Assembly: GCA_963703345.1 (NCBI GenBank)
Contig: OY969814.1
Location: forward strand, 1,961,130-2,025,129
DNA length: 64,000 nucleotides
Source: an uncultured Chloroflexia bacterium
GTDB lineage: Bacteria > Chloroflexota > Dehalococcoidia > DSTF01 > JALHUB01
Direction: 5' to 3'
A program made the position numbers and the translations under genes. The notes under the pieces are model-generated. The model did no database searches. It saw only the letters and a list, made by a program, of their open reading frames with translations, and was not told the origin of the DNA. Shown piece by piece: positions 4,464-35,273 of the stretch; positions within the stretch are counted from its first letter, which is position 1; each line of letters opens with the position of its first letter.

Positions 4464-6716
<2,253 letters not shown>

Positions 6717-6902
6717 GAGTCTGCTCCTTCGCTCTCGAATTGTCGCCCGGTAGGGAGTCGCTCAGCGGTTTGGAGGCTTCCCTCCGACCATGCGAAGTCT
6801 AGCAAAGGGTTCTTTCAATAAGCAACCGAGGATGGCCGTTTCTTGCAACGGATTTCACAAGAGAGTAAGCTCGGGCCCGACGGGGCGCAAACGTAGACTA
6901 GG

Positions 6903-7646
6903 ATGGCCAGAGTGGCAAACGTGCTCGTCATCAGCGCCGACCTGCCGACGCGAGACCTGTTGCGCGCCTGCTTGGTTGAGGATGGGCACCTCGTTGGCGC
7001 CTGCCACGAGCCGGCGGCCGCGCCGCGTCTCTTCGCCACGCTCGCCTTCGACGTACTTTGCCTCGACGTCCATGTCGCAGAAAACAACGTCGACGATCTT
7101 CTGCGCTGGCTGCGGGCAGACGGCGATCATTCGGAGATCCCGGTCCTCTTCGTGCTGCCGCCGAGCCGTCGCTGGTTGCCTGCCGCAATCTCAGCGCAGA
7201 TCCGGCCGGACTTGGACGACAGCCTGACGATGCCGCTGGACGCCGGCCGTCTCAGGGAGAAGGTCCAGCGCCTTCTTTTGCGCCGGCCATCGGCCGCTCA
7301 GCCGCGCGTCCTTCGCCTGCCGCCGCTCGTCCTCGACCGCGACACGCACGATCTCGCATCCGGCGGGAAGGTAGTTAACCTTACACCGACCGAGCACCGT
7401 CTACTTTTATATCTAATGGAGCGGCCGGGAGAGGTCGTGGCGGGCGATGAGCTCTTGGAGACAGTGTGGGGCTTTCATCCCGGCACCGGCTCGGCGTCTG
7501 TCGTCCGAGTGCACGTCGGTAACCTGCGGCGGAAGATGACGAGTCTTGGCCAGGGCCGGCTTCTGGAGACACTCCCGCACCGAGGATATCGTCTGCGTGC
7601 GGAGGACACCAAAAGGTCGGTCCCGGGGGAGACGGCTGACGAATAG
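6903..7646 (+). CDS. OmpR-family winged-helix response regulator with an atypical/degenerate receiver domain
   Basis: C-terminal trans_reg_C (LTPTEHRLLLYLMERPGEVVAGDELLETVWG...RVHVGNLRRKM...GYRL); the receiver lacks the N-terminal acidic pair; no cognate kinase nearby. Confidence 0.7.
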   Translation: MARVANVLVISADLPTRDLLRACLVEDGHLVGACHEPAAAPRLFATLAFDVLCLDVHVAENNVDDLLRWLRADGDHSEIPVLFVLPPSRRWLPAAISAQIRPDLDDSLTMPLDAGRLREKVQRLLLRRPSAAQPRVLRLPPLVLDRDTHDLASGGKVVNLTPTEHRLLLYLMERPGEVVAGDELLETVWGFHPGTGSASVVRVHVGNLRRKMTSLGQGRLLETLPHRGYRLRAEDTKRSVPGETADE

Positions 7647-10357: not shown

Positions 10358-10432
10358 GGGCCCGTAGCTCAGCGGCAGAGCGGCCGGCTCATAACCGGTT
10401 GGTCGCAGGTTCGATCCCTGCCGGGCCCACCA
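10358..10432 (+). tRNA. tRNA-Met (anticodon CAT; G1:C72, so an elongator or Ile2-lysidine type rather than initiator)
   Basis: Hand-folded cloverleaf: acceptor GGGCCCG/CGGGCCC, D arm GCTC-AGCGGCA-GAGC, anticodon stem GCCGG/CCGGT with loop CTCATAA, T arm GCAGG-TTCGATC-CCTGC, discriminator A, encoded CCA. Confidence 0.9.
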
Positions 10433-19511: not shown

Positions 19512-19639
19512 ACTATACTCCTCGCAGTTCCCCACGCCGAAGGGAGGGCAGCGCAATGAGGGACGTTGGCTGGCAAGGCGTCCCGGGTCGGGCGTCCGCA
19601 TCCTCGGCGGCGGTCGTCGACGCTGAGCAGCGGGAAGAG

Positions 19640-20779
19640 ATGCGCCTGGCGCCGCCCGGCGCAAAGCAGATGCGCCGCGCTTACGGCTTCGACGAAGTCG
19701 CCATCGTCCCCGGCGACGTCACGATCAACCCGGAGCTCGTCGATATCTCCTTCGCTCTCGGCGATGTCAAGCTGCGACTGCCGTTCCTCGCGGCCGGTAT
19801 GGATGCGGTAGTCGATCCCCGTTCGGCCGCCATCTTCTCGCAGCTCGGTGGGCTTGCCGTCCTCAACGTCGACGGCCTGCAGACGCGCTACCAAGACCCG
19901 GAAGGCGTTCTTCGAGAGATAGCCGCCGCGTCGCAGGAGACCGTGGGCGCGCTTCTCCAGCGAATCTACTCGCAGCCGGTGCGCCTCGACCTCGTCGGCG
20001 AGCGCGTGCGCGCTGTCAAGCGAGAGGGCGCGCTCTGCGCCGTCTCCTGCACGCCGGCGAATGCCAAGCGCTTCGCGCCGGTAGCCGTAGAAGCCGGCGT
20101 GGACGTGTTCGTCGTCCAGTCGACCGTGACGACGGCGCGTCACAGCTCGCGCAGCCTGGAGGGCCTTCGCTTCGAGAAGCTGTGCGAGCAGGTGCCGGTG
20201 CCCGTGATCGTCGGCAACACCGTCAGCTTCGGCCCCTGCAAAGACCTAATGGAGACCGGCATTGCGGCCGTGCTCGTCGGCGTCGGCCCGAGCGTCATCT
20301 GCACCACGCGCGACGTCCTGGGCATCGGCGTGCCGCAGGTGACGGCGATAATCGACTGCGCCGCCGCCCGCGACGCGTACCAGCGGGAAAGCGGCCGCTA
20401 CGTGCCGATAATCGCCGACGGCGGCATCCACACCGGCGGCGACCTGTGCAAGGCGTTCGCTGCCGGCGCGGACGCCGCGATGCTGGGGACGCTTCTGGCT
20501 GTTGCGGAGGAAGCGCCGGGCCGCGGCTACCACTGGGGCATGTCGGCGCCGCACGCGGAGCTGCCACGGGGCAAGCGCGTGCACGTGGGCGTGCGGGCGA
20601 GCCTGGAGAAGATCCTCTACGGGCCGACCTCTCGCAGCGACGGCACGGAGAACCTTGCCGGCGTTCTGCGGACCGCGCTCGGTGTCTGCGGGGCGAGCAA
20701 CGTCCGCGAGTTCCACCAGGCGGAGATGGTGATTGCGCCTTCAATAAAGACTGAAGGGAAGACGATCACTTCGGCCTGA
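19640..20779 (+). CDS. IMP dehydrogenase/GMP reductase family protein without a CBS insert (GuaB3-like)
   Basis: RRAYGFDEVAIVPGDVT..., catalytic-loop region GVGPSVICTTRDVLGIGVPQVTAI, IADGGIHTGGDLCKAFAAGADAAMLG; start chosen at the internal ATG (19640) about 11 aa before RRAYGF. Confidence 0.8.
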   Translation: MRLAPPGAKQMRRAYGFDEVAIVPGDVTINPELVDISFALGDVKLRLPFLAAGMDAVVDPRSAAIFSQLGGLAVLNVDGLQTRYQDPEGVLREIAAASQETVGALLQRIYSQPVRLDLVGERVRAVKREGALCAVSCTPANAKRFAPVAVEAGVDVFVVQSTVTTARHSSRSLEGLRFEKLCEQVPVPVIVGNTVSFGPCKDLMETGIAAVLVGVGPSVICTTRDVLGIGVPQVTAIIDCAAARDAYQRESGRYVPIIADGGIHTGGDLCKAFAAGADAAMLGTLLAVAEEAPGRGYHWGMSAPHAELPRGKRVHVGVRASLEKILYGPTSRSDGTENLAGVLRTALGVCGASNVREFHQAEMVIAPSIKTEGKTITSA

Positions 20780-20813
20780 GGCGACCGCTCCAAACAACTG
20801 CGCGCTGACAGCT

Positions 20814-20900
20814 TGGTGGGCGATGCAGGGCTCGAACCTGCGACCTTCTGGGTGTTAAGCATCTGCGCCTGAGCGCTGTGCAACGGAATCAGCACCCCCG
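20814..20900 (-). other. tRNA-like 3' element: perfect T-arm, 3' acceptor strand and encoded CCA, but no canonical 5' cloverleaf (truncated tRNA, att-site remnant or atypical tRNA)
   Basis: The minus strand reads ...GGTCGCAGGTTCGAGCCCTGCATCGCCCACCA; the ~55 nt upstream (GGGTGCTGATTCCGTTGCACAGCGCTCAGGCGCAGATGCTTAACACCCAGAAG) cannot be hand-folded into a D arm or anticodon arm, and the 5' acceptor complement GGGYGRT is absent (best match GGGTGCT, one mismatch). Confidence 0.5.
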
Positions 20901-21044
20901 AGCGAAAACGCGGAAGTTATCATCTGGAACCTGAGGCTCAAGGCCGGCCTTGTCCGCAAGAAGCCGCGATGGCGCGAAGCCCTGCGTCGCGCGTTTCCCA
21001 TGGAAACCTAGTATCGTGTGACGTCTTTGTTGTTTGGGATGAAG

Positions 21045-22370
21045 CTATTCGACAAGCTTCATGCTTGGCTTTCCGACATCCACGTAGTCGGCGTAGTTGA
21101 TAGTAACCGCGTTGGAGCCGGAGTAGCTGAATGTGTTGACGATTATCTGGAGAGCGCCCAGATTTCCTCCCCCTGACACATTCAACTGGGCGGCAGGCAG
21201 GTAGATGATTCCCGTGGTGGTGTAGCTGGACCCCGCGTACTTCATCTGCGCGTTGCAGCTGCTGGCCTGCCAGAAGAGCATGTTCTTGTAGGCGCCGGAG
21301 GTGGGCGCGCTGAGGGTCAGGGTGCCGGAGCCCTGGATGGCGATAGAACCGCAAGCGCCGTTGTTGTTCTGAGCGTAGGCGTCGTCGATGTTGTAGAAGG
21401 TAACGCCGGTGCCGTGGATGTTAGTCCCGCCGCTATAATCGAATCCGCCGCCGGCAAAGATGTAGACGCCAGAACTGAAGGTGACAGTCCCTACTCCGGT
21501 GATCTTCAGGCCGCCGTAGTATGTTCCGGGCTGAAGCGTGACGGTTTTATCATTAAAGGTTGTAGCTTTGGGGTTTTTGGCAGTCCCGCTGGAAGTACTT
21601 GATGCCGCCACGCAACCGGGGGTCGGTGTGGTGCCGCAAGGAACGGGCGGGGACAAAGATGCGAGCGGGTCGGGCACTTGACCGGGGACAGACTCTGGCG
21701 GGACTGATGTCGTGGCGTTGTTGCTCAGCGACCAAGATCCCGCACTGTAGTAATCAATGTAATCGGCCACAAAGTGACTGCCGCCGCCTTGGGAGCCGGA
21801 AGGCCCGGGGGGCTGGCACTTTGTACCTGATGAGTTGACGATTGCGCCACCGCCGTTGATCGTGAGGGTGCTGTTGCTCGTCTGGTTGTAAGCCGGGCAG
21901 GCAGTCTTGTCGAGGACAACCAAGGCGTAGTTCTTGGGGACGGTGGTGATGCCTGCGACGGCGCGGGCACTGATGGTGAACGTCTTGACCCCCACAACCC
22001 GCATGAACGCTGTTGGCTGCGAGTGAACTATGTCTACTTCCACGTAGTTAGCGTCGCCGGCATGCGTGCCCGAATGAGGCGGGATCGAAACGCTTGTTTC
22101 GTTGGCCGGGTAGCCGTTCTTTTGTGCCCAGCCCGAAGCTGCGCTAATGGCATCTGAGCGGGAGCCGTCGGTTAGCAGAACGCCGGCCCCAGCAAGAGCA
22201 GCAGCATCCGCACCGTTCTGCGTTTGGGTGCGAACGACGAGGACCGTTCCTCCGTCGATAGCCAGGCCTGCGAACCCGATGAGCACCGTCATCATCACGC
22301 CGGCGAGGATGGCAACCTGACCGCCCTGGTTTCGATGAAGCCTCCCCCAGACGCGAGATAGAATGCGCAT
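21045..22370 (-). CDS. tadG: TadG-like Flp-pilus assembly protein (TadE/G N-terminal domain plus long G/S/T/N-rich beta-helix-like region)
   Basis: N-terminus QGGQVAILAGVMMTVLIGFAGLAIDGG is the Tad pilus-assembly pseudopilin-like motif; 441 aa, low complexity rich in Gly/Ser/Thr. Confidence 0.7.
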   Translation of the reverse strand: MRILSRVWGRLHRNQGGQVAILAGVMMTVLIGFAGLAIDGGTVLVVRTQTQNGADAAALAGAGVLLTDGSRSDAISAASGWAQKNGYPANETSVSIPPHSGTHAGDANYVEVDIVHSQPTAFMRVVGVKTFTISARAVAGITTVPKNYALVVLDKTACPAYNQTSNSTLTINGGGAIVNSSGTKCQPPGPSGSQGGGSHFVADYIDYYSAGSWSLSNNATTSVPPESVPGQVPDPLASLSPPVPCGTTPTPGCVAASSTSSGTAKNPKATTFNDKTVTLQPGTYYGGLKITGVGTVTFSSGVYIFAGGGFDYSGGTNIHGTGVTFYNIDDAYAQNNNGACGSIAIQGSGTLTLSAPTSGAYKNMLFWQASSCNAQMKYAGSSYTTTGIIYLPAAQLNVSGGGNLGALQIIVNTFSYSGSNAVTINYADYVDVGKPSMKLVE

Positions 22371-22374
22371 AGTC

Positions 22375-22821
22375 CTACTCCAATCGCATGTCGGATTTTG
22401 ACGATAGGTCGAAATAGCCGGGGAAATTTCCTCCTGAAACGAGGGTAAGAACGCTGGACAAGGGGGTGATCAGGGTATAGCGGTACTGCGCCTGCACTAC
22501 CACTGAGTTGCCGGAAGTGCGACCGTTGGGGAAGGTCACGCTCACGCTCCGCATATCGGCGATGGTCAAGTCTGCGGTCTCGCAGACACGGCTTACGACG
22601 TTGCCCCGGTCAGAGCCGGTGCAGTCGGTCGGGTATGTGCCGGCAGCGTTCCCGACCGCCGCGTAGCGCGCTCCTTCGCGCGCCGCGTTCGTCAACTCGA
22701 CGTAGGATTTGAACCCCATGCTGAAATCGACGATCGCCAGGCAGAGCAGCAACAGAATCGGTGCCACCATGGTGAACTCCACCAGACTTTGGCTCCGCTC
22801 AGATCCAATCCTTCGCAACAT
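22375..22821 (-). CDS. tadE: TadE-like pilus assembly protein
   Basis: SQSLVEFTMVAPILLLLCLAIVDFSMGF is the TadE N-terminal signature; the start was moved to the internal ATG. Confidence 0.7.
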   Translation of the reverse strand: MLRRIGSERSQSLVEFTMVAPILLLLCLAIVDFSMGFKSYVELTNAAREGARYAAVGNAAGTYPTDCTGSDRGNVVSRVCETADLTIADMRSVSVTFPNGRTSGNSVVVQAQYRYTLITPLSSVLTLVSGGNFPGYFDLSSKSDMRLE

Positions 22822-23023
22822 CCTAACGACTCCATGTCTCCCACTCACGTATGCGTTCGCGCCGACGAGCGTTTGCGGCCCGTCCCCGTGAATGCGCAGT
22901 TGCTTCTGTTTTATAATCGACACATATGCGGAAAAACGTTGAAGAATTCCGGAGCGCGCGGATTCAGAGACAGCCGCTGCTATGGGGCTCAGTTGGGGTT
23001 GGGTAGCAGAGGGGATACGCAGC

Positions 23024-23863
23024 TTATGCGTCTACGATGAGGACGCGATCAAGGCCGGCGAAGTCTTTCTTCACCCTCGGGCGTGCCTCCGCAAAGCACT
23101 CCCGCGCGACCGCCAGCAGCCGCTCGCCCTCGTCCCAGGCGATCTCCGCCAGCAGGCGTCCGGCCGGTCGCAGGTGCGGCGGCGCGGCGCGCAGCAGCCG
23201 CTCCAGCACTTCCGTCCCGAGCGGCCCGGCGTCGAGGGCGGCGCGCGGCTCGTGGTCGCGTATCTCCGGCGGCAGCGCTTCCCAGTCAGCCGTCTTTACG
23301 TAAGGGAGATTGGCGACGATGAGCTCGACGGGCTCCGGCACGGGGTCGAGCAGGTCGCCGCGGAGGAGATGGACGCGTTCCGTCAGCCCGTATCGCGCGA
23401 CGTTGCGGGCGGCGAGCGCCAGCGCTGACGCGGAGTCGTCGATGGCGAAGACGACCGCTTGCGGCAGATGCGTTGCCAGCGCTATGGCGATGGCGCCGCA
23501 ACCGGTGCCCACGTCGGCGATGGCGAAGGGGCCATCGGGAGCGAGACGGAGCGCCTTCTCGACCAGGAGCTCGGTCTCGGGACGCGGGATTAGCGCGACG
23601 GGCGTCGTCTCCAGATCGAGGCCGAAGAACTCGCGGTGGCCGACGATGTAAGCGGTCGGCTCATGGGCAAGGCGGCGCTCGACGAGGCGCTGGAAGGCGG
23701 GGAGAGCGCTATCGTCGACGGCGTCGTCGATACGGGCGAAGAGTTGAGCGCGGTCCAGCTCGAGTACGTGTCGCAGGAGGACCTCCGCCTCGAGCGCGGC
23801 TTCTTCGATTCCGGCGTCCTCAAGGCGGCGCCGCGCGGCGTGGAGTGCTTCCGCCGCCGTCAC
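23024..23863 (-). CDS. prmC: release-factor glutamine N5-methyltransferase PrmC/HemK
   Basis: IVGHREFFGLDL, IADVGTGCGAIAIALA, IVANLPYV (NPPY-type motif); GTG start at 23863 overlaps the prfA stop (GTGA); the longer 381-aa ORF has a non-protein-like N-terminus. Confidence 0.85.
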   Translation of the reverse strand: MTAAEALHAARRRLEDAGIEEAALEAEVLLRHVLELDRAQLFARIDDAVDDSALPAFQRLVERRLAHEPTAYIVGHREFFGLDLETTPVALIPRPETELLVEKALRLAPDGPFAIADVGTGCGAIAIALATHLPQAVVFAIDDSASALALAARNVARYGLTERVHLLRGDLLDPVPEPVELIVANLPYVKTADWEALPPEIRDHEPRAALDAGPLGTEVLERLLRAAPPHLRPAGRLLAEIAWDEGERLLAVARECFAEARPRVKKDFAGLDRVLIVDA

Positions 23864-24957
23864 GCCTGCCTGCCGCCAGGCACGGCGAGCTGTTCTTCCA
23901 GCAGGCGCGCCTGCTCGCTGGTGGAGACGGCGTCGATCAGGACATCGAGCTCGCCGTTCAGGATGCCGGGCAGATTGTGCAGCGTCAGGCCGACGCGGTG
24001 GTCGGTGACGCGGTCCTGGGGGAAGTTGTAGGTGCGGATCTTCTCCGCGCGCTCGCCGCTGCCGACCTGAGAGCGCCGCGTCTCCGAGACCTCCTGCGCC
24101 TGACGCTGCTGCTCGTGGTCGAAGAGGCGGGCGCGGAGGACGGCCATGGCGCGAACGCGGTTCTTCCACTGCGAGCGCTCGTCCTGGCAGACGACGACGA
24201 TGCCGGTCGGGACGTGCGTCAGGCGAACGGCGGTAGCGACCTTCTGGACGTTCTGACCGCCGTGGCCGCTGCTGTGGAAGATGTCGATACGGAGGTCGTC
24301 TTCGTTGATGGCGACGTCGACCTCCTCCGCCTCCGGCAGCACCGCGACCGTCGCCGTCGAGGTGTGGATGCGGCCCTGCGCCTCGGTCAGCGGCACGCGC
24401 TGCACGCGATGGACGCCGCTCTCGTATTTCAGGCGCGAGTAGGCGCCTTTGCCTTTGACCTCGAAAATGATCTCCTTCAGGCCGCCGATGCCGCTTTCGC
24501 TGTGCGACATCACTTCCACCTGCCAGCCGTGCGCCTCGGCGTAGCGCGTGTACATGCGGAACAAGTCGGCCGCGAAGAGCGCCGCCTCGTCGCCGCCGGT
24601 GCCGGCGCGAATCTCGACGATAACGCTCTTTTCGTCGCGCGGGTCGGGGGGCAGGAGGGCGCGGCGGAGGTCCGTTTCAAGGGCCTGCTTTCGCTCTGTC
24701 AGGCGCTCCAGCTCCTCGCGGGCCAGCGCTTCCATCTCCGGATCGTGCGCCTCTTCGATGAGGGCGCGGGCTTCGGCGATGCCCTGCTCCGTCTCGCGGT
24801 ACTGACGGTAGAGGGAGACAAGCTCCTCCAGCGACGCGCGCTCTTTGGCGAGCGTTTGGAGTCGCTCGTAATCGGACGTGAGCTCGGGCCGCGACATCTC
24901 GGCGGTCAGCTCTTCGTAGCGGTCGACGAGGGATTGCAGTCGGTTAAGCATAGTCAT
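23860..24957 (-). CDS. prfA: peptide chain release factor 1
   Basis: [23 protein letters not shown] (PxT motif) and [11 protein letters not shown] (GGQ). Confidence 0.95.
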
Positions 24958-35184: not shown

Positions 35185-35273
35185 GCCGGTGTGGTGAAAT
35201 TGGGAAACACAGCCGTCTTGAAAACGGTCGTGGTTTCGACCACTTGGGGGTTCGAGTCCCCCCACCGGCACCA
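35185..35273 (+). tRNA. tRNA-Ser (anticodon TGA), class II tRNA with a long variable arm
   Basis: Acceptor GCCGGTG/CACCGGC, D stem GTG/CAC, anticodon stem GCCGT/ACGGT with loop CTTGAAA, variable arm CGTGGTTTCGACCACTTG, T arm GGGGG-TTCGAGT-CCCCC, encoded CCA. Confidence 0.85.

Follow-up and report, generated by a model that had tools for sequence, protein, structure and literature searches.

The DNA analysed here, a 64-kb stretch of contig OY969814.1 from an uncultured Chloroflexota bacterium of the class Dehalococcoidia (hereafter the window, whose own numbering is used throughout), carries the 3′ half of a tRNA gene beside two genes of the tad type, tadG and tadE. These features lie between guaB3 on one side and the genes for PrmC, RF-1 and HisS on the other; the adjacent genes overall encode GuaB3, RsmI-like, MutS2, PrmC, RF-1 and HisS (Table 1). 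We considered that the tRNA half, together with the leader preceding it (20929..20814, minus strand), is a solitary junction of the attR type (right-hand attachment site) belonging to a family of small integrative elements specific for tRNA-Val(UAC) in Chloroflexota, and that it is probably inert; we put the probability of this reading at about 0.85.

The original prediction described a flawless T arm, acceptor strand, discriminator and CCA at 20814-20845 of the minus strand, and the sequence bears this out: in the 32-mer GGTCGCAGGTTCGAGCCCTGCATCGCCCACCA (20845..20814), the T stem-loop, the 3′ acceptor strand, the discriminator A and the CCA are all perfect. The 32-mer is single-copy within the window even when up to three mismatches are allowed, with a chance expectation of 0. 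The tRNA part is therefore present, but its length was set too short, the true extent being 48 nt (20861..20814), beginning with the first anticodon-loop base of tRNA-Val(UAC) and ending at its CCA.

Could the fragment be part of a functional RNA? ARAGORN recognized just two tRNA genes in the window, a tRNA-Met (10358-10432) and a tRNA-Ser (35185-35273), and Rfam at its gathering thresholds returned the same two. At the fragment itself, ARAGORN reported neither a tRNA nor a tmRNA, and permissive Rfam searches (20650-21300 and 20790-20935, E up to 10) found no tRNA. The best tmRNA match there, to the acceptor piece of beta_tmRNA, scored 9.1 bits, the gathering score being 84, and spans the T arm and acceptor only. 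In line with the original prediction, the upstream sequence was found not to fold into a cloverleaf, and the folds of the 234 nt and 84 nt ending at the CCA were close to those of shuffled sequences (z of -0.73 and -0.28). The site has neither the 5′ acceptor strand, D arm and anticodon stem of a canonical tRNA gene nor the tag frame, pseudoknots and covariance-model match of a tmRNA. Three special cases were also rejected. A standard or two-piece tmRNA is contradicted by the ARAGORN and Rfam results and by the 34 nt between the CCA and guaB3, which leave no space for a coding piece. A tRNA gene with a group I intron would require a 5′ half (GGGCGAT...), of which there is none within 230 nt, and Rfam was again empty. 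The tRNA-Met at 10358 does not open a Met-Val pair as in relatives, being followed by a Nudix-like open reading frame (ORF) and not by tRNA-Val. The fragment in the window is an attachment (att) scar and not an RNA gene.

The parent tRNA gene and a repeat family

An exact-match scan for the 32-mer in one genome per species yielded 56 loci, many of them in Chloroflexota and Dehalococcoidia. In most of these loci the 32-mer is the 3′ end of tRNA-Val(TAC), including that of the close relative OY970386.1, and in a few loci of other phyla it closes tRNA-Val(CAC) or tRNA-Lys(CTT). Judged by its sequence, the parent gene of the segment is tRNA-Val(UAC): 42-48 nt of it are 96-100% identical to genuine tRNA-Val(TAC) genes (L009, L010, L018, L028 and others; L numbers denote the loci compared with the window), the identity being about 96% when all 48 nt are counted. 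The parent tRNA-Val of the genome from which the window derives would lie outside the 64 kb.

The tRNA segment is preceded by 68 nt of non-tRNA sequence, the leader, with the family consensus CCAGATGATAACTTCCGCGTTTTCGCTCAGGGGTGCTGAATCTGATGCACAGCGCTCAGGCTCAGATGC. Leader and tRNA-Val segment together (window 20929..20814, 116/117 nt) are here called E. About 70 copies of E, 85-100% identical, were found in other Chloroflexota genomes and in metagenomes. Window positions 20813-20929 match at 85-95% in L012, L013, L016, L018, L023, L028, L031 and L044, often several times per locus and close to a real tRNA-Val; a ninth genome locus, L017, has a divergent copy (76%) with no tRNA-Val nearby. A leader-only pattern retrieved 39 metagenome contigs and had no match in viral contigs. 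A co-oriented tRNA-Val(TAC) lies upstream of E in 8 of the 9 genome loci and in 20 of the 39 metagenome contigs. In one subfamily the conservation reaches further upstream, the homology of L023 (3027-3185) continuing to window position 20973 (84% over 160 nt) and similar stretches occurring in the copies of L070 and L103.

In an alignment of 62 copies, drawn from the 9 genome loci and the 39 metagenome contigs, conservation is at least 90% at most positions of the leader. Over 116 nt the window copy agrees with the family consensus at 94.8%, deviating at three highly conserved columns (20885, 20866 and, in the anticodon loop, 20856). The identity between E and tRNA-Val starts at loop position 32, the first base of the loop TTTACAC, whereas the 5′ strand of the anticodon stem reads GATGC in E and TCTGG in tRNA-Val. 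The 48-nt block corresponds to the identity block and core of an att site. In the window the core reads TTAACAC instead of the TTTACAC of the family, a T-to-A change at 20856 that recurs in only 2 of the 61 other copies. RNAalifold on 59 copies gave no consensus RNA structure, the sole invariant feature being a 4-bp helix (-1.1 kcal/mol) with no covariation. Because neither a consensus structure nor covariation is present in E, a role of the leader at the DNA level is favoured.

Elements and arrays at tRNA-Val in related genomes

In a bulk Pfam scan, the ORFs of the E loci gave four tyrosine integrases and three Rep_trans proteins. A full element of 4.5 kb is present in metagenome contig L067, in the order tRNA-Val, a conserved stretch of ~80 nt, a 302-aa integrase, two ORFs, a Rep_trans initiator (1.8e-20), a small beta-flower protein and E, so that the integrase adjoins the tRNA gene and E stands at the opposite end. 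The integrase contains PF00589 (7.3e-27) and SAM-like domains, has XerD as its nearest solved structure (6.7e-26) and matches IntI4 only distantly (1.9e-9); related integrases occur in L081, L082 and L095. No phage structural genes were found in the element family. L088, L094 and L073 are without the L067 unit. Positions 1-132 of L067rc correspond to L088 435-566 (97.7%) and positions 4609-4730 to L088 508-629 (99.2%), and these two matches overlap in L088 across the 48-nt block; the comparison therefore reveals a site-specific insertion of ~4.5 kb flanked by a 48-nt direct repeat. Because E forms the distal end of the L067 element and L088 shows the site without it, E is a junction of the attR type, in agreement with the original proposal that the truncated 3′ tRNA copy is the scar of a tRNA-targeting element.

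Attachment scars are a well-known kind of feature. Fragments of tRNA genes serve as attR sites (PMC9897764), and the anticodon loop is used by tyrosine recombinases as the overlap region, with the tRNA gene being rebuilt (PMC8371274). In the family described here the identity block begins at the symmetric tRNA loop, which is the anticodon-loop sublocation among the classes of Williams 2002, as far as these are summarized in PMC8371274. Like the known sites of this class, E contains a direct repeat of the tRNA 3′ part from the anticodon loop to the end, and in the complete element a tyrosine integrase adjoins the intact tRNA. The restoration of the tRNA gene on insertion and the tandem accumulation at one tRNA gene are likewise shared with the elements of this class. 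Unlike classical attR sites, the window copy is separated from any tRNA-Val gene and from an integrase, and unlike in the classical systems the integrase is short (302 aa), XerD-like and without an arm-binding domain, and the element-side arm is unusually well conserved (85-100% across species). In the literature searched we did not find this family, with its conserved leader, XerD-like integrase, Rep_trans and integrase-poor tRNA-Val arrays in Chloroflexota, and it may be previously undescribed.

In the relatives, E copies separate units arranged in tandem. After the removal of three tRNA-Ile intervals, there were 51 intervals between consecutive att-type sites, all of them co-oriented and with a median of ~1.3 kb. 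The L067 interval is the one that contains an integrase and Rep; the remaining 50 are integrase-free and hold one or two diverse genes in either orientation. The array genes encode DUF3303, DUF1330, SRPBCC, hemerythrin and binding proteins, aminotransferase IV, adenylate cyclase, a PMT_2 glycosyltransferase, MarR and LuxR-PAS regulators, SIR2_2, a pair from a cyclic-oligonucleotide-based antiphage signalling system (CBASS; SMODS plus patatin) and an IS3 transposase. The ~80-nt stretch after the CCA, which we call the P′ arm, is retained in integrase-free units along with the leader, with which it shares the motifs TTCCAGAT and ATAACTTCC. The SRPBCC unit and its E recur in L016 and L076 (85% identity), the left border of the unit not being fixed relative to the preceding CCA, and short integrase remnants lie within the arrays of L101 and L044. 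Many arrays terminate at a common host flank (AGACCACCCTGCACGG...), the 3′ end of a PBP_6 (periplasmic-binding-protein) gene, and therefore everything between tRNA-Val and this flank is inserted material. The metagenome contigs are short, which biases the sample against 4.5-kb intervals. No excised or circular forms of the units were seen. Two processes would account for these data: complete elements may have decayed, or the integrase-free units may be moved by an integrase acting in trans, in the style of cis-mobilizable elements (CIMEs) or integron cassettes. The original prediction had noticed neither the 68-nt leader nor the start at the anticodon loop, nor the junctions that separate mostly integrase-free cassettes in relatives.

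Three known systems invite comparison. CIMEs are units flanked by att sites but devoid of recombination genes, which stand in tandem with autonomous elements or replace them, as in the literature on ICESt3 and CIMEs of Streptococcus thermophilus. Like these, and like the accretion arrays of integrative and conjugative or integrative and mobilizable elements (ICEs and IMEs), E units are att-flanked, lack recombination genes and share their target with autonomous elements; the relatives contain such units, whereas the unit in the window has a single att-type site. E units are, however, much smaller than CIMEs (median ~1.3 kb, one or two genes) and outnumber the autonomous elements 50 to 1 in the sample, and unlike that of CIMEs their mobilization is putative. 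Integron arrays likewise consist of short co-oriented units, mostly single-gene, with a repeat of ~120 nt, a fixed anchor and diverse accessory and defence genes. In contrast to integrons, the anchor of E arrays is a tRNA gene and not attI, their genes point in both orientations, and the recombinase is XerD-like, distant from IntI4, and encoded inside the element and not beside the array; an imperfect palindrome of the attC type was not detected in E by RNAalifold (59 copies), and no R″/R′ core pair was evident by eye. Integrative mobile elements exploiting Xer (IMEX) at dif, such as the arrays of CTX-phi, RS1 and TLC, are small, encode an RstA-like initiator of the Rep_trans type, recombine through Xer, integrate in tandem and include satellites that lack functions. 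Elements of the E family resemble them in their small size, Rep_trans-type initiator, Xer-type recombinase and tandem arrangement, but differ in carrying their own Xer-like integrase, in targeting a tRNA gene and not dif, and in that no phage structural genes were found.

Origin of the insertion in the window and alternative explanations

The loci syntenic with the window, L104-L108, were reached through proteins 94-98% identical to its GuaB3. In L104, L107 and L108, guaB3 and prmC are convergent, 107-190 nt apart, and separated by a common hairpin (CTGAGGGTTGAAACCCTCAG), and tadE, tadG and E are absent from the gap. Homology between the window and its relatives ends at 20779-20791 (20789-20791 for L105 and L106) and restarts at 23039. 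Because the block of ~2.25 kb comprising E, tadG and tadE is missing from this gap in the closest relatives, it is an insertion or replacement specific to this genome, and the tad pair is not syntenic, in agreement with the original proposal that it was inserted between housekeeping genes. L104, the complete genome OY970386.1, has an E array at its tRNA-Val locus, chromosomally far from guaB3. The gap is a recurrent insertion spot. In L105 (9230-11459), an IS1595-family element interrupts this hairpin, which resembles a terminator, and has duplicated 8 bp of the target (GTTGAAAC), and L106 (9232-9712) has ~480 nt of unrelated filler. Insertion borders at nucleotide level could not be defined, the intergenic sequence of the relatives being unrelated to that of the window.

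The two genes encode the pair that had been described as a 441-aa TadG-like and a TadE-like protein, and Pfam supports both assignments (Table 1). The TadE and TadG pseudopilin domains of a Tad/Flp locus are present, and no flp pilin, prepilin peptidase, CpaB/C/E/F or TadB/C was found among the immediate neighbours, the rest of the window not having been scanned for pilus genes; no paralogues of tadE or tadG occur in the window. TadG homologues (48-62% identical; L002-L008, ~6001-7300) are stand-alone genes in unrelated neighbourhoods without a tad locus, and none of the loci examined showed conserved synteny or an adjoining tRNA fragment. The pair tadE-tadG probably does not belong to a pilus locus but is cargo of recent acquisition.

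How might the junction have formed and come to lie here? As in classical tyrosine recombinases at tRNA genes, strand exchange would occur within the 7-nt anticodon loop. The 3′ tRNA half of the element itself would rebuild the gene, and the displaced host 3′ half would stay behind the element arm. The genes tadE and tadG may have come as cargo with the element end, and the piece bearing E may have reached a site that is not a tRNA gene through illegitimate or secondary-site recombination. The scar and tadE-tadG most likely arrived jointly, on a fragment of an element or array of this kind. E in the window would now be a relic with no RNA product and no recombination; lacking both a partner site and an integrase, and with one core base altered, it is probably inert. 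Neither an integrase nor a Rep homologue was found in the window, tblastn with the four family integrases giving no match below E = 0.29, in keeping with the suggestion that any element would be a decayed remnant. Both the bounding pair of tRNA gene and attR and the internal integrase, present in L067, are lacking here.

Several observations weigh against this interpretation. No tRNA-Val that would provide the partner attL occurs within the 64 kb, nor does a second E, so that what lies here is not a bounded element. Nor are the edges of the 2.25-kb block tied to any att-like sequence. A junction composed of arm, core and 3′ half at a site that is not a tRNA gene is not what simple secondary-site integration would produce, so that an additional, non-canonical step of translocation must be assumed, and for this reason the route of arrival cannot be reconstructed. 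Moreover, no TadG or TadE homologue is found inside any E-bounded unit elsewhere, and hence it is solely their co-insertion that links the cargo to the element. At the far border (22924..23038), we found no att-like sequence, tRNA half or P′-arm motif, and a permissive Rfam search of 22880-23080 returned nothing tRNA-like; the ~22 nt between the end of homology to relatives after guaB3 and the CCA of the scar have no similarity to the flanks after CCA in other loci. An inversion that split the tRNA halves and left the 5′ half at 22975-23020 (plus strand) was rejected, its support being a stretch of 10 nt (22987-22996, plus strand) in common with the D arm of tRNA-Val, which is at chance level (E = 3.2), and Rfam being empty.

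It is possible, though we regard it as doubtful, that E is the recombination site of integrase-free cassettes, akin to an integron attC or to the ends of CIMEs, on which an Xer-like integrase acts in trans. In that case tadE-tadG-E would be one cassette that landed at a secondary site, which would extend the interpretation of E as an attR-type junction without contradicting it. The presence of an integrase in a single one of the 51 short, co-oriented intervals, the diverse accessory genes held singly or in pairs in either orientation, the retention of both P′ arm and leader in integrase-free units and the recurrent SRPBCC unit would agree with this idea. However, the short metagenome contigs disfavour 4.5-kb intervals, the variable left border of the SRPBCC unit fits decay equally well, the integrase remnants point to deletions in once-complete elements, circular forms were not observed and the window copy has no second att site. 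We entertain with the same reserve a broader, joint proposal, namely that the Chloroflexota tRNA-Val(UAC), probably located after an rRNA operon and tRNA-Met, anchors an integron-like platform. Its cassettes would carry one or two accessory or defence genes and a split att of ~200 nt (P′ arm, tRNA 3′ half and 68-nt leader); the XerD-like integrase of the rare 4.5-kb elements would capture and reshuffle them in trans, and tadE-tadG-E would be an escaped cassette.

Three further explanations were considered. An assembly artefact, namely a chimeric join through a repeat also present in that genome's tRNA-Val array, is very unlikely. E is indeed a repeat, and L001, an independent short-read contig with an identical tadG, breaks within the leader at window position 20901, as expected of a repeat. 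The same contig is 100% identical over 20901-22425 and so independently supports the junction of tadG with the leader, the join of E to guaB3 lying beyond its span; in addition, the window was drawn from a contig of 2.28 Mb, and its private substitutions make E a distinct copy. Less probable still is a functional RNA ending in CCA, be it a non-canonical tRNA, a piece of a tmRNA or another tRNA-like RNA, which had been offered as an alternative in the original prediction and has gained no support. The perfect T arm, 3′ acceptor strand, discriminator and encoded CCA, the very strongly conserved leader and the ability of GGGUGCU in the leader to pair with AUCGCCC at 6 of 7 positions might suggest such an RNA, but the ARAGORN and Rfam searches were negative, folding energies equalled those of shuffled sequences, and RNAalifold showed no covariation. 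The putative acceptor pairing was rejected, being without covariation and broken in the divergent L017 copy; the coding piece of a permuted tmRNA would overlap guaB3, and the conservation of the 3′ half is accounted for by its origin from tRNA-Val. We give least credence to the decay in place of a resident tRNA-Val that lost its 5′ half with no mobile element involved. The 48 nt of tRNA-Val, and a weak similarity that in some alignments runs on to ~20881, would be expected of such a gene, whereas the sequence 5′ of the anticodon loop is not degraded tRNA but the conserved leader common to ~70 copies, and in the close relatives the guaB3-prmC gap is free of tRNA genes.

For the window, the interpretation as an attR-type junction provides a clean annotation, in which the fragment is an att scar and the tad pair acquired cargo. 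The scar itself is of an ordinary kind, although in related genomes the family of elements behind it makes up unusual gene arrays without integrases. Beside tRNA-Val in uncultured Chloroflexota, accessory and defence genes (CBASS, SIR2, SRPBCC and binding proteins) are concentrated in hot spots marked by the very conserved 117-nt junction. If the units are mobilized in trans, they would represent a second, tRNA-anchored route of cassette accumulation besides integrons, and a compact integrase, XerD-like and with a defined tRNA target, would become available as well.

Further features of the locus and of the repeat family

Table 1. Positions of the features at the window locus and of related features in the loci compared
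Feature	Location	Strand	Remarks
guaB3-type IMPDH-related host flank	19556..20779	+	Pfam IMPDH 5.4e-51; 94-98% identical in relatives
guaB3 stop to CCA of the scar	20780..20813	.	34 nt; first ~10-12 nt homologous to relatives
Copy of tRNA-Val(UAC) 3′ part	20814..20861	-	anticodon loop, 3′ anticodon-stem strand, variable loop, T arm, acceptor, CCA
Leader of E (element-side arm of att junction)	20862..20929	-	68 nt, non-tRNA; CCAGATGATAACTTCCGCGTTTTCGCTCGGGGGTGCTGATTCCGTTGCACAGCGCTCAGGCGCAGATGC
Subfamily-specific extension of element end	20930..20973	-	upstream of leader
tadG-like, 441 aa	21045..22370	-	Pfam PF13400 (9.1e-11), PF09977, DUF7305
tadE-like, longest ORF 182 aa from GTG	22375..22923	-	Pfam PF07811 (1.4e-13), residues 45-86
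Far border, non-coding, abuts prmC 3′ end	22924..23038	.	homology to relatives resumes at 23039
tRNA order in relatives	L009 850-924 and 4205-4452; L018 1338-5197; L094 149-4418		
E copies with hairpin	L013 2925-3140, 4866-5077, 1382-1590; L018 6623-6833, 7405-7616; L031; L044; L070; L076 8125-8336; L079; L081; L098; L101; L103 10174-10385		
Leaderless tRNA-Val fragments	L023 3902-3924; L044 1164-1188; L085 3895-3924; L096 835-865; L016 3691-3729; L038 5226-5260; L039 2858-2902, 3957-3991		
32-mer at tRNA-Lys(CTT) or solitary	L011 426-457; L041 2126-2157; L034; L047; L050		

The translation suggests that the true start of tadE is likely the ATG at 22821, giving 148 aa. A palindrome with an 8-bp stem (ATGAAGCT...AGCTTCAT, 21039-21062) spans the tadG stop codon; it is the sole terminator-like call in 20700-23150 and lies on the plus strand, opposite to tadG, the minus version being without a T run. 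The longest prmC ORF (23024-24169, minus strand, 381 aa) overlaps prfA (23860-24957) by ~300 nt. Because PrmC is 280 aa in relatives, its true start is probably internal, near 23866.

Among the relatives, tRNA-Met is followed by tRNA-Val, and a tRNA-Ile/tRNA-Ala pair lies ~3.3 kb upstream; judged from this tRNA order, the tRNA-Val arrays probably come directly after an rRNA operon. Defence-type units beside tRNA-Val include a CBASS-like SMODS cyclase with patatin (L103 5119-7022) and a SIR2_2 protein (L076 7034-8122).

A subset of E copies has a GC-rich hairpin of 20-45 nt, for example CCTGCCTGCCGGTAGGCAGG, inserted in the T-arm region; since it recurs in different genomes, it looks like the mark of a subfamily and not like random decay. 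Leaderless tRNA-Val 3′ fragments of 23-45 nt, from about the T loop to the CCA, occur in the same loci as E and suggest that other element families, with a crossover in the T loop or at the 3′ end, also use tRNA-Val. A 94-nt "tRNA-Gly" (L022 7524-7617) and a 79-nt second "tRNA-Val" (L039 2824-2902) called by ARAGORN end in the 32-mer and are probably att fragments miscalled as tRNA genes; as L022 and L025 are contiguous, ~14.7 kb separate the fragment in L022 from the real tRNA-Val. In Reyranella, Nitrospiraceae and Hyphomicrobiales, tRNA-Lys(CTT) likewise terminates in the exact 32-mer, and two alphaproteobacterial contigs carry the 32-mer as a solitary fragment without a tRNA. Finally, L090 (2016-2116) contains a partial leader-like sequence 19 nt past the CCA of a genuine tRNA-Val; it breaks within the anticodon-loop region and looks like a truncated or rearranged junction.

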